A stretch of 64,000 nucleotides of DNA from a virus (IMGVR_UViG_3300034073_004910:30403-94402), one strand, 5' to 3'. Positions 1,535 through 31,510 are shown, counted from the stretch's first letter. Numbers and translations: made by a program. Notes: a model not told the origin generated them from the sequence alone.

Positions 1535-1610
1535 TGGTGCTTCGAGATGGGATTGAACCATCGACCTGACGCTTATAAGACGCCCGCTCTTACCCCTGAG
1601 CTACCGAAGC
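1535..1610 (-). tRNA. tRNA-Ile(UAU)
   Basis: cloverleaf GCTTCGG/TCGAAGC-ACCA, anticodon arm GGCGT-CT TAT AA-GCGTC, T-loop GGTTCAATCC. Confidence 0.9.
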
Positions 1611-1614
1611 GAAT

Positions 1615-1691
1615 TGGTGGGCTGTCTGGGATTCGAACCCAGGACACCCTGGTTAAAAGCCAGGTGCTCTAACCAACTGAGCTAACAGCCC
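1615..1691 (-). tRNA. tRNA-Lys(UUU)
   Basis: cloverleaf, CCTGG-CT TTT AA-CCAGG, encoded CCA. Confidence 0.95.
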
Positions 1692-1697
1692 TTACGA

Positions 1698-1771
1698 TGG
1701 TGCGGCTTGAGAGAATCGAACTCTCACCTCTAGCTTGGAAGGCTAGGGCACTACCTTTATGCAAAAGCCGC
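1698..1771 (-). tRNA. tRNA-Gly(UCC)
   Basis: cloverleaf, CTAGC-CT TCC AA-GCTAG, encoded CCA. Confidence 0.95.
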
Positions 1772-2142
1772 TAAAGGGGAATTTCTGCTAGCCCAGATTC
1801 GCGATCTAGGTACTTGTAAGACACGTTGACTGGCTCAAATTCTTCCAGCGCCTGAAACACATCTCTTGGGTCCATAGGACCACAGGTATATACGTCAAGT
1901 TGAATAAGTCCAGGATTCGTTTCATCCCAAACATGAATCGCAATATGACTGGTCTCGATAATCACAACTCCAGTCAATCCACGATTTCCTTCGACATTTA
2001 AATAATGAGAAATAGGACCTTTACAAATTTTCATGCCAATCTTAGAGACTAGCGTAGTCATCCAGTGCTCCAAGTGCTCTGTAGCCGTTGGAGGATTTAG
2101 TACTTCTGCGCGAATGATTAAATGTACGTGTACAAGGTGCAT
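1771..2142 (-). CDS. speD: S-adenosylmethionine decarboxylase proenzyme
   Basis: GLTGVVIIETSHIAIHVWDE autocleavage region and QLDVYTCG motif. Confidence 0.9.
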   Translation of the reverse strand: MHLVHVHLIIRAEVLNPPTATEHLEHWMTTLVSKIGMKICKGPISHYLNVEGNRGLTGVVIIETSHIAIHVWDETNPGLIQLDVYTCGPMDPRDVFQALEEFEPVNVSYKYLDRESGLAEIPL

Positions 2143-2151
2143 ATATTTCTC

Positions 2152-2361
2152 TTAAAAATGTTTTGTCAAAATCTGTAGTTTTTCTTCCCACTCTGCTAGA
2201 ATTGCTACTTCCTGATCAATTGTTTTCATAATATCAGGATGCTCGCCAACTCCAACATGATTGTTCAATAGAATTTCAATATTTACTTTATGAAATTCTA
2301 TCTCTGCTTCGTACTTTTGTTTGAGAGCCTTTAAAATATTACTGCGATGAGTTATGCTCAT
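2152..2361 (-). CDS. Conserved phage hypothetical protein (69 aa, GVGEHPDI)
   Basis: start moved to the ATG just after the tRNA-Leu 3' end. Confidence 0.75.
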   Translation of the reverse strand: MSITHRSNILKALKQKYEAEIEFHKVNIEILLNNHVGVGEHPDIMKTIDQEVAILAEWEEKLQILTKHF

Positions 2362-2427
2362 ATAATTCTCTAAAAGTGGTGCGGGTAGCCGGACTCGAAC
2401 CGGCACGCTATAAAAGCGACAGATTTT

Positions 2428-3076
2428 CTTACCACTACGTGTTTCCACGCCATTACTGTTTGTGGTCTGGACTTTGTCTTTACCATAGTGTTTCCACTTT
2501 AGGTACCTCGTGTAAAGTCTCTACACTCGTCTTTCGACTAGCACGGCGTTGCCATGACTAAAGGTTTCACCGTTTTAGCGAGGTCCACTTACTAAGTTTC
2601 CCTAGTAAGGCTCTTATTTGTATAGTGCGTTACAATAACTTCTTGCGAGCTAAAAGTTTCTATATTTTGAGAAGCTTTCCCAGCGCAGCTTCTGCTGCAA
2701 AACGGCCCTTTTTTCCTTTGCTTCTATTATGTTTAGCATCGTGTAGCTTTCTCCCTTCTAGGATAAAACTAGAATGGCACACTTCACATATAAAAGTTTG
2801 AGAGCCTATTCGTTTTGCGTCAAGTTTTGCATGTGCTGAGCGGTCAATAACCGCTAAGTTATCAATATCGTTATTAGTAACGTCTCCGTCAATGTGGTCT
2901 ACGGTTTCATTTTTGGTAAACTTTCTACCAATATGGTTTTCCATAATAAACTTAGGATATGAAACAGTTTTCTTTGTTCCATCAAGAAACACAATAACTA
3001 TTCTAGATCTATTATCCTTAGCTATGTAGGGGCCATATATTTTTTTAATATTTTCGTAAACCATACACTATACTAA
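2428..3076 (-). mobile_element. Group I intron (649 nt) in the tRNA-Leu anticodon, with an endonuclease ORF in the P1 loop
   Basis: exon ends in U and intron ends in G; P1 CTT^TTA/TAAGAG with U.G at the splice site; R element GTAGAGACTTTA and S element AAGACAAAGTCC. Confidence 0.9.
2592..3064 (-). CDS. Intron-encoded HNH homing endonuclease (frame 0 stops at 2660; -1 frame runs to 2592)
   Basis: VDHIDGDVTNNDIDNL HNH motif, CEVC, and FCSRSC in the -1 frame. Confidence 0.85.
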
Positions 3077-3114
3077 AAGTCTGTTGTGTCTACCGATTCC
3101 ACCATACCCGCGTA

Positions 3115-3270
3115 TCAATCATACCAATGGCGAAGCACTCCCGCCATAATTACAAAGTTTGTAAGCAGAGTGACTATTACTATCACTGTACGAATCAAAG
3201 CTATAGTGTTTGCTTCTTTGTCCGTACTGCCGCTTTTTTCGCCTAGAGCTTTTGCCCAAAGTCTCCACAT
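3115..3270 (-). CDS. Small membrane protein (MWRLWAKALGEK..., 51 aa)
   Basis: single TM segment; start lies after tRNA-Thr. Confidence 0.65.
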   Translation of the reverse strand: MWRLWAKALGEKSGSTDKEANTIALIRTVIVIVTLLTNFVIMAGVLRHWYD

Positions 3271-3273
3271 ATT

Positions 3274-3349
3274 TGGTGCTCCCAGAGAGAATCGAACTCC
3301 CAACCTACTGATTACAAATCAGTTGCTCTACCTGTTGAGCTATGGAAGC
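3274..3349 (-). tRNA. tRNA-Thr(UGU)
   Basis: ACTGA-TT TGT AA-TCAGT anticodon arm, CCA end. Confidence 0.95.
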
Positions 3350-9323: not shown

Positions 9324-9842
9324 TTAAAATTTTGTTAGCATTGAAAGAGCTTCTTCAGTGACTTCTTCTGTTCGGCGGCTCCAGCCCTTTCCAAAAACTG
9401 GAAAAGTAGAAAGTCGACGATAGTAGTCAAGTCGAAGCGTTTTAAATTCCATAATCGCCACTACAGGATTATGAATGTTTAATGCTGCACTAATGGTACG
9501 GGGCCCAAGCACGCCATCCTCTTTAGCTTTTACAATTTTTTGTAAAAATCGAACAGCGCGCGAAGGCCCCGCGTTGACACCAAAATCAAATACTATTAAA
9601 TCAATACCTACAGGTAATTGATCGCAGGACATGCGGTCCCAGTATTGCTTTCGGTAGATAGGCTCAACATCTTTTATCGTCAAAGCTTTAATGTCTTCGA
9701 CCGATACGGTTCGTTTCACCCATCGTTCATAGGTGGCTTTTGTAATGCCAAGATTTGTAGCACCTCCTGGATCTTGGGGATGGTTTACAAAGCCACCTTC
9801 GTGTTTTAGAACAATTTTTAGACAGTGATCAAACGTTTTCAT
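9324..9842 (-). CDS. Endolysin, GH108 muramidase with peptidoglycan-binding domain
   Basis: HEGGFVNHPQDPGGATNLGIT motif and FGKGWSRR C-terminus; start set to MKTFD. Confidence 0.92.
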   Translation of the reverse strand: MKTFDHCLKIVLKHEGGFVNHPQDPGGATNLGITKATYERWVKRTVSVEDIKALTIKDVEPIYRKQYWDRMSCDQLPVGIDLIVFDFGVNAGPSRAVRFLQKIVKAKEDGVLGPRTISAALNIHNPVVAIMEFKTLRLDYYRRLSTFPVFGKGWSRRTEEVTEEALSMLTKF

Positions 9843-22784: not shown

Positions 22785-23001
22785 TCCACATACGAATATA
22801 GTTTAGTGCAAATGCGACTTGATTAGCAGGATAACCACTATCCAACAGAAAAATTCTCAGATCTGGATCTTTTTGAGAATTCCAGATCTTAGGAAAACCA
22901 AATCTCCAGCCTTCTGGTGGGTCTATCCAAACTTTACCGTAATTATACATTTCAGTAATCCTCGTTATCTCGACCGGTCGTACCCCAGGAAACTGGACCA
23001 T
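22756..23001 (-). CDS. Hypothetical protein (IDPP.GW.FGFPK)
   Basis: motif recalled from phage small proteins. Confidence 0.6.
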   Translation of the reverse strand: MVQFPGVRPVEITRITEMYNYGKVWIDPPEGWRFGFPKIWNSQKDPDLRIFLLDSGYPANQVAFALNYIRMWNVEENESNE

Positions 23002-23278
23002 ATGCAGTCGACTTAATGCTGTTGTAGAGAATCACTCGCCATGCGTCGTAGTATGCTTGAGTCGAATTGTCAAACTCCTCCAAATCGTCTTCGGTAGGAG
23101 GGGGCAGTTCTTCAAAGGCTTCTTCTGCCATGATCACAGCTTGCTCATAACCATAATCTTCTGCATCTTCACGCGAACACGCCGAGATGACAAGCTCGTA
23201 GTCTTTGTTGTAGATTCCATAATTAACGAGGTACCTAGGCATGTATGCTCTCCATTTGTGATTGCAAGCTTTTTCCAA
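22952..23278 (-). CDS. Acidic hypothetical protein
   Basis: ORF downstream of a minus-strand promoter at ~23290-23318. Confidence 0.55.
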   Translation of the reverse strand: MEKACNHKWRAYMPRYLVNYGIYNKDYELVISACSREDAEDYGYEQAVIMAEEAFEELPPPTEDDLEEFDNSTQAYYDAWRVILYNSIKSTAYGPVSWGTTGRDNEDY

Positions 23279-23399
23279 ATTCGAAAAGTATTATAGGTTC
23301 ATTGGGTCGCAAAGTCAAGAGAGAAATTCGGTTTCCTAAGGATTCGATTGAGCAAAATTTTCGGGGCCCAGCAAATTTTGTCAACTACTTTTTTATAAT

Positions 23400-24130
23400 T
23401 TGGACAAAATTTTCCCCAAAATTGTATAAAACCGGATTAAATTCCTGCAATTCCACGGACCCCGCTCCGGGGGCCGGAAAAAATTGGGGTAATTTGTGCG
23501 GGGTCGGTGCAAGCCGAGTCGGGGTTTGTGCAAATTACTGCAAATTAGTGCACCCGCCCGGGCGGTTGTAAAAAGACTAGCAAAAGCAACTCGGTGGAGC
23601 AAATAAAAAATTTGACTTGACAAATAGGGGGTGCGAAAAGTATAATGGGCGCGCGCAAGTGCAGCGCAATTTGCATTGCTTTTGCACTTGGGCGCGGAAA
23701 ATATTGCATTGATTTTGCACTTGCTGGTCGGCGCGCGGGTTCAAGCGGGGTTGGAAAGCAAAACGGGGTTGCTGCAAATTTATTGATAATTAGTGCAAAT
23801 TGGTGCACCCGCCCGGGCACTCGTAAATTTAGTACTTGACATCGCTTTCGCACTTGGGCGCAGGCTCGCTGCAAATTTTTTTCTTCAAAAAAATTTTTTT
23901 AAGTGCAAAAAACTTGACTAAAGTACAAAAATGCAGCAAATTCAGCAGCATACGTAGATTTAGTACTTGCATCGCTTTTGCACTTGGGCGCAGGAGGCGC
24001 CGGGGGTTGAATGGGCAGGTAGCTTGCCGCCGGGGGGTTGAATGGGCAGGTGGGTTGACGAAATCGGGGGCAATGGCAGGTAGCTTGCGCAAACCCCGCC
24101 CGATGAGCAAGAAACTTGACGAACGCCCCC
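23400..24130. repeat. Non-coding repeat/palindrome block (TGCAAAT, GCACTTGGGCGC, AGTACTTG, GCAGGTAGCTTGC units)
   Basis: repeated motifs and no credible ORF. Confidence 0.75.
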
Positions 24131-24169
24131 AGGCGGCAAATGCGAATGAGAATCATTCGCATTTCCGGC

Positions 24170-24740
24170 GCAATGTTATAACATACCATTGAGCGAGTAA
24201 ATGAAGGGGCGCTCGTCGCGCCCCAGTCATCTATCGAGCGATCGCTTCGAGCAACCGTTCGAGTGACACCTTACTTGCCTTTTCCAGCCCATCCAGACTG
24301 TTAGCGGCCAGACTCAATGCCTGCTCAATTCGGTCTACCGTGACTTCCTTGGAAGCAACCGGCTTTCCATCCTTACGAACCCGTTCGAGTTTTTGGTAGG
24401 GAATTCCTTCCCGAATCGCTTTTGCGATGATGCTTTTGACTTTCGCATCAAACTGCTCTGCCAGCCCTTCTACCTTTTCAAGGTTGAGCGGGGCCGCATC
24501 GCGCATCGCGGTCAGAAGGGTCGGGTTAAACGTGCTAGCTTTCTCTGCCATTTTGGCTTCCTCTTTTGGCTCGCTGGCCTATCCAGCGAATGAGAGAATT
24601 ATACGCCCATCGAGCCGAAAAGGAAAGAACTCTTTTTCATATCGCTGGCCGTTTTCATGCGAAAAAATTCCTTGACAAGCGCAGCGCGCTTGTGATAAAA
24701 TCGGCGCGGCTATTGTCAAGTAAGTTGACAATTCGCCCCC
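24170..24740. repeat. ~570-bp duplicated cassette, copy 1 (copy 2 at ~28605-29170)
   Basis: near-identical downstream hairpin, gene and upstream promoter element. Confidence 0.9.
24231..24551 (-). CDS. T5 A2-like DNA-binding protein (paralog 3)
   Basis: LAEQF..KVKSIIAKA.REG..YQK...GLEKASK; GAGG RBS. Confidence 0.7.
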   Translation of the reverse strand: MAEKASTFNPTLLTAMRDAAPLNLEKVEGLAEQFDAKVKSIIAKAIREGIPYQKLERVRKDGKPVASKEVTVDRIEQALSLAANSLDGLEKASKVSLERLLEAIAR

Positions 24741-24922
24741 AGGCGCCAAATGCGAATGAGAATCAATCGCATTTGGCAAGCAAAAAATAAGGCGTTATAA
24801 CGCCTTATTTTAAATATGCATCCTCGTATGTATCAAATATAAACGCGCATTCTAGCAGAAGATTTATTATTAGCGGGTTTAGGCAAATTAGCCTAAACCC
24901 TTCTACCAGTTCCATCATATTA

Positions 24923-25594
24923 TTATGCCGCCTTTTGAACAATACGCCACGGATTAGGCGTTATTACATTGTAGGGAACCTTGCGCTTATGCTTGAAACA
25001 TTCTGCAAGAATTTCCGTTTCGATAATAGCGTCCGACAATGCAGTATGATCCTCGATAAAGTCATGATTACCGGAAATAAAACGATAGGCAAACTCTGCA
25101 CCAGTCTTAATATTACCCTTAGCAGAAACCCAACCGCTATTCTGAGCGAGTTTAATGTAAGACTTTTTGTTGAGTCTTACTTCGCAAGCAAAACGCCAGA
25201 TATCGAGTTCACGAATATCGGACGAAAACAGCGGAGCGGTATTATATTGTTCGCCCATGTTACGCAATACACGTTCATCGAATCCCAGATTATAAGCGGC
25301 TACAGTATCAATCTTATAATCAATCGCAAGATTGCGAATAGTATTAGATACCGTTTCCCATGATTCCATCTTAACAGTACCGTCGTTCAGCATGGGGGCG
25401 TAGTGCGTGAACATCTTGCGAGCGTAGAATGCGCCCATCATTCGTTCCGCATTCGTGAATACTTCGCGCACCAGTGCATTGTACTGGTGAACAATGTTAC
25501 CCTGACGATCAGTAATCGTAAGGCCAACGTCGTAAACGTGACCGTTCAGGTCGCACGTTTCGGTATCGAGAACCATAATCATTTGCTTTGCCAT
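24923..25594 (-). CDS. DEDDh 3'-5' exonuclease
   Basis: LDTET, AYNLGFD and DHTALSDA motifs; start MAKQM. Confidence 0.88.
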   Translation of the reverse strand: MAKQMIMVLDTETCDLNGHVYDVGLTITDRQGNIVHQYNALVREVFTNAERMMGAFYARKMFTHYAPMLNDGTVKMESWETVSNTIRNLAIDYKIDTVAAYNLGFDERVLRNMGEQYNTAPLFSSDIRELDIWRFACEVRLNKKSYIKLAQNSGWVSAKGNIKTGAEFAYRFISGNHDFIEDHTALSDAIIETEILAECFKHKRKVPYNVITPNPWRIVQKAA

Positions 25595-25650
25595 CTTCGC
25601 GAACCCTTGCTGTGAGTGAGAACCTACTATACTCAACGCCGAACCGGCTG

Positions 25651-26076
25651 TCAACGGTTTTCGTATCGAAAGACAAAAAATTCCTGCATCGCTCGGGCTT
25701 CCATTTCCCAAGGGGCGAGCCAATAGTCTAAATCCGTTTCGTTGGAATAAACCTTGCCTTTATATAAAACCTTATCGTTTGCAATATCTTGCAATTCTCC
25801 TTTTACCCATTGTTTAATATGCGTCATTTCATGCGCTACTAATTCCATTAGTCGCTGTTCTGACAACATAAGTTCTTCATTAATAATAATAAAGAACAAA
25901 TCGTCATCGCCCCTAAAACATGCAGCATCCGCAGCACCAGAAACAAAATTTTCTATGCAGTCTGCCGATATATCAACGCCAATGTTTTTTGGCAGCTTAT
26001 AAAAGCTTACGCAATCTTTTGCGATAGCTTTCGCAATAGTATTAAAGCGCTTAAAGCCCAAATCAACCTCGATCAT
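25651..26076 (-). CDS. HExxH zinc metallopeptidase-like protein
   Basis: VAHEMTHIKQW...PWEMEA. Confidence 0.75.
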   Translation of the reverse strand: MIEVDLGFKRFNTIAKAIAKDCVSFYKLPKNIGVDISADCIENFVSGAADAACFRGDDDLFFIIINEELMLSEQRLMELVAHEMTHIKQWVKGELQDIANDKVLYKGKVYSNETDLDYWLAPWEMEARAMQEFFVFRYENR

Positions 26077-26204
26077 TTTCGCGTTCCTTCACAACCAACA
26101 CAGATATTATAGTCTAACGGGGGCCAAAAGTAAACATGAGAATTTCGTTTAGAATCAATGACTTAGATCAACCCGACCTTCGAGTTTTTCAATTTCAGTC
26201 ATAC

Positions 26205-26390
26205 TTACCACACCAAGCGACGTACTTCCGAATCTAGCATCCATTCTTCAATGTAAACTGTTTCTACCATTTTACATTCATTATCGAGTTCAAGAGCCCG
26301 ACATTTCGCTTTTTCGAGGTCAGAATATACTGCTACCGTAACGCGACCGTTCTGCGTACTTTCAAGAACAATACCATACACTACATTCAT
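26205..26390 (-). CDS. Small protein (VYS..KA...VYIEEW family, paralog 1)
   Basis: paralogs at 27326 and 30522; GAAGGA RBS. Confidence 0.75.
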   Translation of the reverse strand: MNVVYGIVLESTQNGRVTVAVYSDLEKAKCRALELDNECKMVETVYIEEWMLDSEVRRLVW

Positions 26391-26589
26391 TTTCGCGTTC
26401 CTTCATTCGATGACAAGCATTCTAGCGGGTTTCATGCAGCCAGACTAGTGAAAGATTTTCATGGTGCCATGAGAAAAATTCGCTTGACAAGTATGGGATG
26501 GGGATGGTATAATTTCGGCGCCATATTGACAAGTAGCTTGTCAATCGCCGAGGCGCCAAATGCGAATGATTCGCATTCGCATTTGCCCG

Positions 26590-26844
26590 TTATTGGTAAA
26601 CAATCAACGCCAAAAGCGATGATTGTAAAAAGAACCCTATTCCGTTTGACGTTATATGCAAAAAGTCACGGTTGCCTATTGCGCGAATAAAATAAAGCGC
26701 CAGCCCAGCCCACACCATTAAGACTAATGAAATTTCAGGCAATTTAACATCCTGCCCGTTCAGTATTCCTATCGTAGTGGGAACCGTCGCGCCTTGAATA
26801 AATAGCATACCGAGCCATCCGCAAAATTCGCAAAGGTTTTTCAT
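26590..26844 (-). CDS. Three-TM membrane protein, PQ-loop/SemiSWEET-like
   Basis: three hydrophobic helices; ...ITSN.IG pattern in helix 3. Confidence 0.55.
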   Translation of the reverse strand: MKNLCEFCGWLGMLFIQGATVPTTIGILNGQDVKLPEISLVLMVWAGLALYFIRAIGNRDFLHITSNGIGFFLQSSLLALIVYQ

Positions 26845-27059
26845 TCCTTCACCTTGACTTCAGTAATGCTGCAAGTCAGAAAATGATCTGGAGTCGCTCC
26901 CCAGATATACCCGTTTTCAGAATGCCAAGTTATTGGGTCACCATCTAACATTTTGTGTATCGCTTTTTGCGCGGCCTTCACGCTAACGTAAAGCCCTGCA
27001 ATTGCACCGATTTCTTGGATATATACAACCGGATCTATGGTTAGCTTGTAAACGATCAT
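26841..27059 (-). CDS. Hypothetical protein
   Basis: GAAGGA RBS and own promoter. Confidence 0.65.
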   Translation of the reverse strand: MIVYKLTIDPVVYIQEIGAIAGLYVSVKAAQKAIHKMLDGDPITWHSENGYIWGATPDHFLTCSITEVKVKE

Positions 27060-27110
27060 TTTGCGTTCCTTCAGTTGAGAGAAGTATTCTAGCCCAGCGC
27101 GCGCTCGGTG

Positions 27111-27341
27111 TCAATCATTTTCTTCGGGCTTTTTCCAGTAGACTGCCAAGCGCTTGCAATTGAAGCGAATCGTGATTGATTCGTGCCCGTCGCGAATCGA
27201 AGTGTATCGCTTATAATTGGGACCAATGCTATCAACTTGAAAATCCCTGCCATTTTCCCAGTCTGCCAGCGCCTTAGCGGCTGAAGTGTAATCGCGACCA
27301 TACCCCGGAATTACTGTCATTTTATTTATTCCCTCGACCAA
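27111..27341 (-). CDS. Hypothetical protein (P.YGRDY.SA..ALADW..GRDF)
   Basis: recalled phage motif. Confidence 0.65.
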   Translation of the reverse strand: MVEGINKMTVIPGYGRDYTSAAKALADWENGRDFQVDSIGPNYKRYTSIRDGHESITIRFNCKRLAVYWKKPEEND

Positions 27342-27520
27342 ACTGTAACAGAAAATTCGCTATCCATCATCCATTCTTCAATATAAACGCTTTCTCCCAT
27401 TTCGCATTGGCTCAATAATTCTTCAGCGAGTTTCACCGCCTTATTATAATCGGAATAAACTCCGACCGTAGCATAGCTGTTGTCCGAAGGCTCGCCAAAT
27501 ACAACAGTGTATACATTCAT
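27326..27520 (-). CDS. Small protein (VYIEEW family, paralog 2)
   Basis: paralogy. Confidence 0.75.
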   Translation of the reverse strand: MNVYTVVFGEPSDNSYATVGVYSDYNKAVKLAEELLSQCEMGESVYIEEWMMDSEFSVTVWSRE

Positions 27521-27848
27521 TTTTACATCCCTCTATTCGATGACAAGCATTCTAGCGGGGTTCGTGCGAATAGACTAGTGAAATATTTTCATGATGCCAT
27601 GAGAAAAATTCGCTTGACAAGTAATGGATAGGGGTGATATAATTTTGGCGCCATATTGACAAGTAGCTTGACAATTCGCCCCGAGGCGGCAAATGCGAAT
27701 GATTCTCATTTGCATCGCTGCTCTTGTACCTCGCGCCTAACCAAATGCTTGACAATTGCGCGCTTAACATGCTTACCATGTTTAGCGGAATGCGTTCCTG
27801 CTCGCCCTGCTAAATGCGCGTTTTTAGCTACAAAATTTTGCGCTTTCA

Positions 27849-28295
27849 TTATACGTCCCTCGGGTGTATTGCGTTAATTCCCAGTATTTTAACAGTGTTT
27901 CTTACAGAATCATTATCTTCATAAAATACATTAGAAACGCGGTGAAAGTCTACATTTAATCCTGACAGTAAGTCATATTTTAGAAGTGCATCGGGCCGAT
28001 TATCGTTCTCACCTTCGCGGGACAATACGCGATCAAAGTGTAACCCATGAGTACGCAAAAAGGTAAAGTCTGCCATCTGCAATACTCGCGCAGTACAAAT
28101 TACGACAATATTACCAGCATTCCAAACGTCACGCCAAACGTTAGCGAGCGGTAAAAGTTTATCTTGCATAATCTTTTCGGGCGTAGAATTTGCTCGCCAT
28201 CCGGCAAGGCAAAAGCTACCGTCCGCATTCGCAACAGAACGATGGCTTGAATCTATGACCGTTCCATCTAAATCGAAAATGTTATATCTTGGCAT
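27849..28295 (-). CDS. HAD-superfamily phosphatase
   Basis: IFDLDGT, CTAR, K and YEDN motifs. Confidence 0.85.
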   Translation of the reverse strand: MPRYNIFDLDGTVIDSSHRSVANADGSFCLAGWRANSTPEKIMQDKLLPLANVWRDVWNAGNIVVICTARVLQMADFTFLRTHGLHFDRVLSREGENDNRPDALLKYDLLSGLNVDFHRVSNVFYEDNDSVRNTVKILGINAIHPRDV

Positions 28296-28664
28296 TTTCT
28301 TAAACCCCGTAAACGTGTGCGCTGGCAACAATGATTGCAAAAAGAACGACTCTGCTAAGAGCGGAAGTGAGTACTAATTCTGCGAGCTTTTTCATTCGTT
28401 CCGTTTCCTGATTCAATGGGAGTATTCTACCGGGTCCGAGCAAAAAGTACAAGAACTCTTTTTCATATCGCTGGCCGTTTTCATGCGAAAAAATTCCTTG
28501 ACAAAACCCATGCGGTTATCGTAAAATCGGCGCGGCTATTGACAAGTAGCTTGTCAATTCGCCGAGGCGGCAAATGCGAATGATTCTCATTTGCATTTGC
28601 CGAGCAACGTTATAACATACCATTGAGCGGGTAAATGAAGGGGCGCTCATCGCGCCCCGATCAT

Positions 28665-28985
28665 CTATCGAGCAATCGCTTCCAGCAACCGCTCGAGTGA
28701 CACCTTACTTGCCTTTTCCAGCCCATCCAGACTGTTAGTGGCCAGATTCAATGCTTGCTCAATTCGGTCTACCGTGACTTCCTTGGAAGCAACTGGCTTT
28801 CCATCCTTGCGAACCCGTTCGAGTTTCTGGTAGGGAATTCCTTCCCGAATCGCTTTTGCGATGATGCTCTTGACTTTCGCATCAAACTGCTCTGCAAGGC
28901 TCTCTACCTTTTCAAGGTTCAGAGGCGCTGCATCGCGCATCGCGGTCAGAAGGGTCGGGTTAAACGTGCTAGCTTTCTCTGCCAT
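28665..28985 (-). CDS. T5 A2-like DNA-binding protein (paralog 4)
   Basis: three residue differences from 24231..24551. Confidence 0.7.
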   Translation of the reverse strand: MAEKASTFNPTLLTAMRDAAPLNLEKVESLAEQFDAKVKSIIAKAIREGIPYQKLERVRKDGKPVASKEVTVDRIEQALNLATNSLDGLEKASKVSLERLLEAIAR

Positions 28986-29213
28986 TTTGGCTTTCTCCTT
29001 TGGCTCGCTGGCCTATCCAGCGAATGAGAGTATTCTACAGGGCCTGAGCAAAAAGTACAAGACCTTTTTTTCATATCGCTGGCCGTTTTCATGCAAAAAA
29101 ATTCCTTGACAAGCGCAGCGCGCTTATGATAAAATCGGCGCGCCCATTGTCAAGTAGCTTGACAATTCGCGCCGAGGCTACAAATGCGAAGATTTTTCAC
29201 TTGCAAACCAGGC

Positions 29214-29390
29214 CCAGGCCTGGCATTGAAATTTCACTTGCAAATTCGCCCCAGGCCTGGCATTGAAATTTCACTTGCAAACCAAACCCAGGCCTGGCAT
29301 TGAAATTTCACTTGCAAATTCGCCCCAGGCCTGGCATTGAAATTTCACTTGCAAATTCGCCCCGGGCCTGGCATTGAAATTTCACTTGCA
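29214..29390. repeat. Five tandem 37-bp repeats containing palindromes CCAGGCCTGG and TGAAATTTCA
   Basis: units at 29214, 29251, 29288, 29325, 29362. Confidence 0.9.
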
Positions 29391-29394
29391 TAGG

Positions 29395-29565
29395 TTTCTA
29401 ACTTGCATAGATTTCTAACTTGCATAGATTTCTAACTTGCATGTGCAGGTTTCTTGCCTTTCCCCTCGATGGGCAGGTAGCTTGCAGGTGAGCCCGCCGA
29501 TGGGCAGGTAGCTTGCAGGTGAGCCCGCCGATGGGCAGGTAGCTTGCAGGTGAGCCCGCCGATGC
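29395..29565. repeat. Three 17-bp (TTTCTAACTTGCATAGA) then three 31-bp (GATGGGCAGGTAGCTTGCAGGTGAGCCCGCC) tandem repeats
   Basis: direct reading. Confidence 0.9.
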
Positions 29566-29806
29566 GCAAGAGACTTGCCTTTGCCCGCCCGATGGGCAGG
29601 CAAGTTGACGAATTCCATGAGATGCGCAGAAAACTTGCATTTTCGGCGCGGTTGGCACGTTTCTTGCACATGAGTCAAAGCTGGCATGAATTTTGCATGT
29701 ACTCCACAATTGGCATGATTCTTGCAGATTCGGCGCGGTCCGCAAGATGCTTGCACAATTCCGACAAATGCGAGTAATTCGCATTTGTCGGAATTATAAG
29801 CGATTA

Positions 29807-30151
29807 TTAAGTAGTCGCTTTATGTTCTTCTAGCATACGCGCGAACAATGCGCGCTTATTATTAATAATCGCTTCGGCTTTTATTAGAATATCGAGTTCT
29901 TCTGCCGTTAACTCAATCGGATCAAGTTTCGGCAATCCTTCTGTAGCGTTCTTTTTATTATTGCAGTCATGGCAAAGGCATTGTAACCATTCAGGATCAT
30001 TTAAATCGATACCCATTGCAAGCAACGTTTTGCGTGGATAAACATGATCAATTTCAAGATTAGAACCACTACCGCAAGCTGCGCAGCGATAGTTATATGC
30101 TGCAAATACTTGCGCGCGCAGTCTCATTTCAACCTTGCTAAACTTTGCCAT
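29807..30151 (-). CDS. HNH endonuclease
   Basis: CAACG...LEIDHVYP...LQCLCHDCN; GGAG RBS; start MAKFS. Confidence 0.85.
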   Translation of the reverse strand: MAKFSKVEMRLRAQVFAAYNYRCAACGSGSNLEIDHVYPRKTLLAMGIDLNDPEWLQCLCHDCNNKKNATEGLPKLDPIELTAEELDILIKAEAIINNKRALFARMLEEHKATT

Positions 30152-30259
30152 CTCGTCTCTCCAGTACCGTTGCTCTATGGTTCCCATTATACAGGCATCC
30201 TCGAGCATGGCAATAGGCGAGTTAGACCTTTTTTTCATATCGCTGAGCTTTCTTATGCG

Positions 30260-30515
30260 AAAAAAATCCTTGACACGCTCTGGCGTGGTAAGGTAAAATC
30301 GGCGCGCCCATTGTGAAGTAGACTGACAATCATTCAGCGGCCTACATGAAAAAAATTCGCTTGACAAGTATAGGATAGGTGAGGTATAATTTTGGCGCCA
30401 TATTGGCAAGTAGACTGACAATCATTCACCGGCCTACATAAAAAAATTCGCTTGACACGCTCTGGCGTGGTAGGGTATAATCGGCGCGCCCAAATGAGAG
30501 GTATTCTCATTTGGG
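30260..30515 (+). repeat. Three tandem ~91-bp units, each with a TTGACA-N18-TA(T/A)AAT promoter-like site
   Basis: -35 hexamers at 30270, 30361, 30452. Confidence 0.85.
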
Positions 30516-30521
30516 TTACCG

Positions 30522-30710
30522 TTACTCCTCGCTTCGCCACACGACCGAGGAGGCATTTGAATTCAACAACCATTCCTCCACAAACACAAGTTCGCCAGTC
30601 TCATGTGCGAGTCGCTCGGCCTCTTGCACGGCAGCCTCGAGCGTGCTATAGATTGCTTCCAGCGAGTCAGCTTCATGATCGACTGCGGTCCCGACTACGT
30701 ATACTTGCAT
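30522..30710 (-). CDS. Small protein (VYIEEW family, paralog 3)
   Basis: paralogy; GAGG RBS. Confidence 0.7.
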   Translation of the reverse strand: MQVYVVGTAVDHEADSLEAIYSTLEAAVQEAERLAHETGELVFVEEWLLNSNASSVVWRSEE

Positions 30711-30798
30711 TTTCGCGTTCCTCTGTTTCCTGATTCAATGAGAGTATTCTACACGGTCTGCCGAGAGAGTACAAGACTTTTTTGTAACAGAATGTAAC

Positions 30799-30992
30799 GT
30801 GCGTCGACTTGTTACCGTGCGTCGACTTGTTACCGTGCGTCGACTTGTTACCAGCCCGGGGCGGTTCCGAGACTGTCAAGTAGCTTGACGCTCAGGCTAC
30901 CCCGCACGTACAACTTTTGGAATTTTTCAAAAATTGAAAATTAAAGCAATCTGCCCAAGCAATTTGCCCAAGTAATTTGCCCAAGCAATTTA
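30799..30992. repeat. Three 18-bp (GTGCGTCGACTTGTTACC) and three 13-bp (TGCCCAAGCAATT) repeats near the presumed genome end
   Basis: direct reading. Confidence 0.8.
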
Positions 30993-31027
30993 CTCTTCAA
31001 AAATTTTTACCATCAAAAAAATAATGT

Positions 31028-31056
31028 TTGACATTTCGTTTCGTAGCAACTATAAT
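31028..31056 (+). promoter_or_regulatory. Late promoter TTGACA-N17-TATAAT
   Basis: perfect consensus; ATG follows 7 nt after the -10, so the mRNA is probably leaderless. Confidence 0.8.
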
Positions 31057-31063
31057 AGTCGTC

Positions 31064-31510
31064 ATGAATTTGGTAAAAATTTCTCCTGAAAGTCTTGAAA
31101 TTGCAAATGCATATTTGCAAAATGGCAGCATTGCTAGTGTTGCAAAGGCGCTCGCACTTCCAGAAAATGAGGTGACAGAAATTCTCTCTCGCCGAGAAGT
31201 AAAAGCGTATCTAGATTCCATTTATCTAGATCACGGCTATCGAAATAGATTCAAGTTAGCAGAGACTCTCGATCTTCTCATAGACGAAAAACTTCGTGAA
31301 GCAGAAAGTACCGAGATGTACACTAACAAGGACTTAGCCGATCTGTTACACCTAGCTCATAAGATGCGTATGGATGAAATTAAAGCAATGACCGAACTTG
31401 AGAAAGCTCGAGCAACGCCGATTAAAAATCAAACCAACGTTCAGATTAATGAGACTCCATTTGGTGCTGGCAACTACGGCAAGTTAATGGAAAAACTTTT
31501 GCAATCATGA
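31064..31510 (+). CDS. terS: Terminase small subunit (T5-like)
   Basis: ISPE.LEIANAYL..G...GYRNRF..GNYGKLM; position upstream of terL. Confidence 0.85.
   Translation: MNLVKISPESLEIANAYLQNGSIASVAKALALPENEVTEILSRREVKAYLDSIYLDHGYRNRFKLAETLDLLIDEKLREAESTEMYTNKDLADLLHLAHKMRMDEIKAMTELEKARATPIKNQTNVQINETPFGAGNYGKLMEKLLQS

Follow-up and report, generated by a model that had tools for sequence, protein, structure and literature searches.

Candidate Fur boxes at the gene junctions of a putative pre-early region in a distant T5-like phage

The window analysed here is a stretch of 64,000 nucleotides corresponding to bases 30403-94402 of the 94,402-bp virus contig IMGVR_UViG_3300034073_004910. Between positions 24138 and 30513 (all coordinates of this phage are those of the window), it contains a set of palindromes which resemble Fur boxes, the binding sites of the bacterial iron regulator Fur. 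The phage is a distant T5-like siphovirus, with a large terminase 47% identical to that of Klebsiella T5-like phages, and no close relatives were found among deposited phages by megablast. All of the genes between 24231 and 30710 are located on the minus strand, and those with an assigned product are listed in Table 1. From 31028 on they are followed by the small and large terminase genes, the portal gene and a protease-capsid fusion, a position which suggests that the palindrome-containing region is pre-early and enters the cell first.

The junctions between the genes in this region share a common layout. Nine sigma-70 promoters, perfect or nearly so, have the form TTGACA-N18-TAWAAT, together with an upstream A-rich element and a GGCGC discriminator. 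All nine read along the plus strand, which directs them against the 3' ends of the minus-strand genes, and none has an open reading frame (ORF) downstream. These ORF-less promoters (23617-30481) stand back to back with weaker gene promoters of the TTGTAC-N17-TAGAAT type. Along the plus strand, the order at a junction is the promoter, a palindrome designated pal1 (ATTGACAAGTAGCTTGTCAAT), a GC-rich spacer, the Fur-like box and the stop codon of the preceding minus-strand gene, with every box located from 12 nt inside to 148 nt beyond such a stop codon. The pal1 sequence was not enriched above control in five bacterial genomes. The first-pass annotation had placed most of the boxes ~45-50 bp past an 18-bp-spacer promoter, which holds for five copies situated 44-47 nt after the -10 element, while the copy at 30491 follows at 9 nt and those at 24138 and 29765 have no sigma-70 promoter. 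Sigma-54-type -24/-12 sites also occur on the plus strand, at 24074, 29471, 29502, 29533, 29653 (a perfect TGGCACGtttcTTGCA), 29682 and 29711, where they are spaced 29-31 bp apart within a tandem-repeat region; the contig holds 14 such sites as opposed to 3.3 in shuffled sequence, with seven of the 14 in this cluster. In one related phage, a perfect TGGCACG-N4-TTGCA adjoins each Fur box.

Table 1. Features of the palindrome-containing region (window coordinates) and the corresponding elements of phage T5 (T5 coordinates). Scores out of 19 refer to AATGMGAATnATTCKCATT.
Feature	Position	Strand	Description
Candidate Fur box 1, 27-bp form	24138..24164		Heptamers TGCGAAT, then TGAGAAT-c-ATTCGCA; 19/19; 66 nt 3' of the stop of minus-strand gene 24231-24551; sigma-54-like repeats upstream, no sigma-70 promoter
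ORF-less sigma-70 promoter	24672..24701	+	TTGACA-N18-TAAAAT, A-rich upstream element, GGCGC discriminator
Other eight ORF-less sigma-70 promoters	23617, 26484, 27614, 28498, 29106, 30270, 30361, 30452	+	
pal1	24712..24732		ATTGWCAAGTARSTTGWCAAT; palindrome between promoter and candidate Fur box
Further pal1 copies	26525-26545, 27655-27675, 28538-28558, 29146-29166		Degenerate copies at 30310 and 30402
Candidate Fur box 2, 27-bp form	24748..24774		18/19; 46 nt past the -10 of promoter 24672-24701
Bidirectional terminator	24780-24812		After candidate Fur box 2
Exonuclease-like protein	24923-25597	-	
DUF7336 protein	26205-26390	-	
Candidate Fur box 3	26558..26584		Exact 19-mer AATGCGAATGATTCGCATT plus one additional ATTCGC hexamer; 44 nt past a -10; 5 nt from the stop of minus-strand ORF 26590-26844
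Candidate Fur box 4	27691..27717		19/19, right flank degenerate; 47 nt past a -10; overlaps the end of small minus-strand ORF 27706-27849
HAD/PNKP-type phosphatase	27849-28295	-	
Candidate Fur box 5	28572..28598		19/19; middle heptamer flipped relative to box 1; 44 nt past a -10; 66 nt 3' of the stop of minus-strand gene 28665-28985 (paralog of 24231-24551)
Degenerate remnant	29181..29203		Left half-site only, 15/19; 45 nt past the -10 of promoter 29106-29135; runs into 37-bp tandem repeats
Candidate Fur box 6, short single 7-1-7 form	29765..29787		TGCGAGT-a-ATTCGCA, 18/19, within a 15-5-15 palindrome; 19 nt from the stop of the HNH gene; sigma-54-like sites upstream
HNH endonuclease	29807-30151	-	
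Candidate Fur box 7, short form	30491..30513		GAG/CTC half-sites, 17/19; 9 nt past the -10 of promoter 30452-30481, as in related phages; 8 nt from the stop of minus-strand ORF 30522-30710
T5 left terminal repeat, injection-stop region	9551		AAATACGAATCATTATCATTCGTATT
T5 left terminal repeat, injection-stop region	9587 and 9610		AAATGAGAATCATT
T5 left terminal repeat, injection-stop region	9655 (9655-9681)		AAATGAGAATCATTATCATTTGCATTT; 22/27 identical to the copy at 24138
T5 left terminal repeat, injection-stop region	9690		AAATGAGATTGATTCTCATTATCATTCGCATT

The 27-mer AAATGCGAATGAGAATCATTCGCATTT, which the first-pass annotation reported at 24138-24164, was found there exactly, and the variants it noted at 24748, 26558, 27691 and 28572 are present with one to three mismatches to this 27-mer, as opposed to no matches in 100 shuffled sequences. 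Three additional copies had been described as degenerate, a term which suits that at 29181, a half-site remnant, but not those at 29765 and 30491, which represent a short form (21-23 bp) of the same element matching the 19-mer at 18 and 17 positions, respectively. In a scan of the window, seven palindromes fit AATGMGAATnATTCKCATT with zero to two mismatches (0.15 expected), including four exact matches and six sites with at most one mismatch. No further copy of the palindrome was found in the rest of the contig.

The short form is composed of one 7-1-7 unit, TGMGAAT-n-ATTCKCA, which matches the heptamer architecture of Fur boxes, and the 21-bp form observed in related phages (AAATGCGAATnATTCGCATTT) is likewise a single unit, TGCGAAT-n-ATTCGCA. 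In the 27-mers the five central bases are always nGAAT or ATTCn and constitute a third heptamer, so that the 27-bp form is a 7-1-7 unit extended by one heptamer, which may point either way. This corresponds to the classical F-F-x-R arrangement known from Fur boxes, and one relative has the full 12-1-12 form. The difference in arm spacing between the 21- and 27-bp forms was dropped as an argument against a dimeric protein, since it amounts to exactly one Fur heptamer and also occurs among chromosomal Fur sites. Agreement of GCGAATGAGAATCATTCGC with the E. coli Fur consensus at 14 of 19 positions, as previously claimed, was confirmed. Identity as a Fur box is supported more strongly by the match of the core, at all 19 positions, to boxes upstream of Burkholderiales iron-uptake genes. 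The phage motif also agrees with the published Xanthomonas Fur consensus AATGAgAATcATTctCATT (PMC1790865) and with the validated Caulobacter Fur sites ATTGCGAAnnnTTCTCAAT (PMC2724300).

The exact core AATGCGAATnATTCGCATT was searched for in one genome per species across ~185,000 prokaryote species, and is present in at least 120 bacterial stretches, where ~9 would be expected according to our own estimate of chance. The stretches listed belong overwhelmingly to the Burkholderiales and other Betaproteobacteria, with some from the Xanthomonadales and Alphaproteobacteria, and nearly all of the listed sites are intergenic. Neighbouring ORFs of ~710-770 aa code for TonB-dependent receptors in all five cases tested, while three of five smaller neighbours tested code for components of FbpC/FbpA-type iron ABC transporters and no family was assigned to the other two. 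The location of the core upstream of TonB-dependent receptors and Fbp transporters shows it to be the working Fur box in this group of bacteria, where it often, as in three of the loci, fills the 18-bp spacer of a TTGACA...TAnnnT promoter. Among the matches listed, 20 of the 120 chromosomal sites also carry the additional hexamer, and at one locus the chromosomal site is identical to phage box 26558 at 26 of 27 positions. When 101 Burkholderiales genomes were searched allowing one mismatch, 31 contained a site (44 sites in total, with a maximum of five per genome), as opposed to none with a reversed-pattern control; the phage contains six such sites within 6.4 kb.

A betaproteobacterial host fits this form of the box and is suggested by a permuted, two-piece transfer-messenger RNA (tmRNA) encoded by the phage (6345-6664, minus strand; tag ANDDFYNEEYAVAA); with the Rfam beta_tmRNA model this tmRNA exceeds the gathering threshold. 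The tag had pointed to an alphaproteobacterial host, which was rejected as Rfam places the molecule with the betaproteobacterial permuted type. The proposal that the box follows the Fur dialect of the host, with ATTATC in T5 and GCGAAT in the present phage, is tenuous and was not relied upon, since Burkholderiales sites also use ATTATC hexamers. No Fur-family gene was found in the contig.

In the T5 genome (121,750 bp), all eight matches to the element are located in the two terminal repeats, four in each, and none in the unique 101 kb. The T5 site at 9656 matches the 19-mer AATGATAATnATTATCATT, quoted for Shewanella and Bacillus (PMC1790865, PMC2724300), at 18 of 19 positions. The cluster at 9552-9715 adjoins the estimated first-step-transfer (FST) shear point at 9618 and is conserved in 534 deposited phage records. 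Davison (10.1101/866236) described these elements as DRC1-4, palE, palG and palH of Repeat Region 3, placed the FST shear point at ~9618 and considered the function of the repeats "impossible to guess", discussing DnaA boxes but not Fur. The injection-stop signal is annotated as the feature 'iss' in NC_005859. As judged by their sequence, the boxes of the present phage are the counterpart of the DRC/palE-palH repeats of the T5 injection-stop region, and as no link between the T5 repeats and Fur was found in the literature searched, this link is, as far as found, new. The region in the present phage abuts TerS/TerL, as does the right repeat of T5, while the contig has no end repeats and the copies are dispersed rather than clustered. 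A perfect Fur 7-1-7 unit (TGATAATCATTATCA) also occurs in T5 at 233-247, within the dmp coding sequence, and in its right terminal repeat copy. A query with the T5 Fur-box cluster gave partial matches in ~150-kb phages of other groups (four hits, Justusliebigvirus and Escherichia phage Ro121lw among them), and Fur-like arrays may thus not be limited to the T5-like phages.

Binding by host Fur is judged likely on the basis of the identity of the sites with bacterial Fur boxes, their local density, their restriction to this region and the homology with T5, and the palindromes are probably consensus-strength sites for host Fur in the betaproteobacterial form of the box. Several observations weigh against this. 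Fur boxes typically overlap the -35/-10 elements of the regulated gene, while those of the phage start 9 or 44-47 nt past the -10 element of promoters that drive no ORF. The flanks outside of the Fur core differ among the copies and yet are complementary (CGGC/GCCG, ATTCCGAC/GTCGGAAT, CCC/GGG), covarying in several of them, which points to selection for a hairpin. The promoter TTGACA-N18-TAWAAT-YKGGCGC was also found in 112 other viral loci, where it nearly always precedes, at ~+5, a perfect palindrome of widely differing sequence which often ends in a T-run. One of these alternative palindromes, TGATGTTATAACATCA, did not occur above control in 151 Burkholderiales genomes. Palindromy as such seems to be a common requirement at these promoters, and the varied palindromes following the same promoter, together with the covarying flanks, suggest that a hairpin, in a short RNA or in the DNA, is a general feature of the junctions.

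The boxes could alternatively be generic promoter-proximal hairpins on very short ORF-less transcripts, acting as a 5' hairpin, a weak bidirectional terminator or a cruciform, with the Fur-like sequence an inherited flavour that has no protein partner. Such a role would suit the orientation of the viral promoters, which are directed towards a convergent gene, from its 3' side, in 60 cases as opposed to 12 (23 ambiguous), the position of all boxes at minus-strand gene 3' ends, and the predicted plus-strand RNAs, which fold into two to three hairpins with z-scores of -4.2 to -7.7. A chance palindrome would, however, not be expected to match a 19-bp regulatory consensus at 19/19 positions in four copies, nor to show the heptamer variants of that consensus, and the core has been kept from T5 to this phage despite large terminases that are only 47% identical, whereas other palindrome flavours differ between phages. 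When the copies were examined for covariation that preserves pairing at the expense of the Fur-contact bases, the core bases proved invariant except at one position (A/C with T/G), where the changes are partly uncompensated. Among 52 distinct phage sites obtained in a core-pattern search (at most one mismatch), the main variation likewise affects the third heptamer base (A or C), sometimes on one side only, and several single 7-1-7 sites contain an uncompensated C/T pair within the stem. No box passed an intrinsic-terminator scan, the stems having four GC pairs in 11 and a tail of only TTT, and a search of 23000-31500 against Rfam yielded no real match, the lone hit being a spurious miRNA far below the gathering score. 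A purely structural role is considered improbable, and the Fur-like box appears rather to be the palindrome flavour kept from T5 to this phage.

Two segmental duplications in the region, 24128-24427 with 28562-28861 (93%) and 26382-26545 with 27512-27675 (87%), copy a whole cassette of junction element and gene, giving rise to two 106-aa paralogs and two ~62-aa paralogs. Both duplicated 106-aa genes have a box shortly beyond their 3' end (24138 and 28572, respectively), and in relatives such as L014 the box comes after a homolog of this gene, raising the alternative that the boxes are operators for a phage-encoded DNA-binding protein, one of these paralogs or an A2-like protein, which would shut off or time the early promoters. 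The position of the box in the relatives, from ~+5 to +31 of the promoter, is typical of an operator, and a search with T5 A2 gave a weak match elsewhere in the contig, outside of the window (E = 4e-4). The 106-aa proteins themselves, labelled A2-like in the first-pass annotation, have no similarity to T5 A2 that could be detected and matched no Pfam family, and a PHROGs search gave nothing for one paralog and a single marginal hit of unknown function for the other. No homolog of T5 A1 was found in the contig. An operator of this kind, which would leave the identity of the site with the bacterial chromosomal Fur box unexplained, is regarded as quite unlikely.

A further proposal, the lead idea of the first-pass annotation, is that the sites form a sponge which titrates Fur and derepresses the iron regulon of the host. 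It draws on consensus-strength sites that are far denser than in any of the 101 bacterial genomes sampled. Multicopy Fur boxes are known to titrate Fur, which is the principle of the Fur titration assay (FURTA). A cell contains several thousand molecules of Fur, however, and the phage offers seven sites, a number that would double to 14 were the region a terminal repeat. With about a dozen sites a sponge would be unlikely to act before replication, and titration would require hundreds of genome copies, late for an element of an early region. The fixed placement of the boxes at promoters and gene ends would also not be needed for titration, and this proposal is accorded little credence.

The preferred reading is that the junctions constitute a Fur-operated switch or roadblock. 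As Fur is abundant and already present in the host, it could occupy the sites as soon as the phage DNA is in the cell. Each site would be transcribed as part of the leader made from a strong ORF-less promoter on the plus strand and would lie at the point where an early gene on the minus strand ends. Metal-loaded Fur would in this way block the plus-strand promoters or act as a roadblock to them, and would insulate the gene cassettes. In the relatives and at 30491, where the box spans ~+5 to +31 of the promoter, the bound repressor would block initiation, while at the other junctions it would form a roadblock ~45 bp downstream and also a barrier where the minus-strand gene ends. Fur would fill the sites in iron-replete cells and leave them free under iron starvation, so that transcription of the region would vary with the iron status of the host, and a role as iron sensor is possible. 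In this arrangement the first phage DNA to arrive in the cell probably meets an abundant host protein that acts on it.

A broader, speculative idea, to which only a minor probability is attached, is that the T5-like phages as a group restrict clusters of top-affinity Fur boxes to the first-entering DNA as a landing pad for abundant host DNA-binding proteins, where Fur would pause, anchor or ratchet the incoming DNA or gate the pre-early programme by iron. The T5 boxes are situated at the injection-stop point beside DnaA boxes, and those of the present phage beside ORF-less sigma-70 promoters and sigma-54-type sites. The co-location in T5 prompts the more adventurous suggestion that Fur might help RNA polymerase, sigma-54 holoenzyme or DnaA to hold the incoming DNA or make it pause. 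Should the landing-pad idea be true, fur, or iron, would be a host determinant of two-step injection. Recognition by Fur would provide the long-known T5 repeats with a concrete host partner which is abundant, requires no new protein synthesis and is tied to the iron-regulated receptors used by T5-like phages. The number of consensus Fur sites in a virulent phage can evidently exceed that in an entire bacterial chromosome, which bears on how phages may read or disturb the metal homeostasis of their hosts.

Other features of the contig were also noted. Four tRNA genes are located at 1535-3349, and the divergent gap upstream of the small terminase gene contains two tandem arrays, at 30795-30852 (3 x 18 bp, TACCGTGCGTCGACTTGT) and 30944-30991 (3 x 13 bp, AAGCAATTTGCCC), which may serve as a packaging or terminus signal. 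In T5, the major nick is annotated at 9748/9749 at AA|GCGCA, right next to the cluster of Fur boxes. The ORF-less promoters of the present phage invariably have GGCGC as their discriminator, GCCACTGGCGCA occurs in tandem arrays in relatives, and the nick sites and ORF-less promoters may be linked.

The palindromes of this phage can be compared with three known systems. With the Fur boxes of Betaproteobacteria, Xanthomonadales and Alphaproteobacteria (19-bp 9-1-9 / 7-1-7 operators) they share an identical 19-bp core, the heptamer architecture and the optional additional hexamer. The host boxes, however, overlap the -35/-10 elements of iron-uptake genes, whereas those of the phage follow ORF-less promoters, lie where genes end, are around a thousand times as dense as in a bacterial chromosome and form part of longer, GC-flanked palindromes. 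Fur-repressed small RNA genes such as RyhB, PrrF1/2 and NrrF have a strong promoter whose start site carries a Fur box, and yield a transcript of ~100 nt that ends at an intrinsic terminator. The unit at 24672-24812 resembles these in its consensus promoter, Fur-like box in the leader, predicted transcript of ~110 nt and Rho-independent terminator, a layout shared by the relatives L010 and L014. In contrast to the bacterial small RNAs, the predicted phage RNA consists almost wholly of palindromes, with no conserved single-stranded seed visible and no Rfam match, and several of the phage units are without a plus-strand terminator. The injection-stop repeats of T5 represent the same element, and in both phages the copies are confined to the non-coding repeats of a region beside the terminase genes. 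The T5 copies, in which ATTATC hexamers are commoner, form one tandem cluster of ~170 bp without promoters, whereas those of the present phage are dispersed over 6.4 kb, one per gene-cassette junction and most of them after a promoter.

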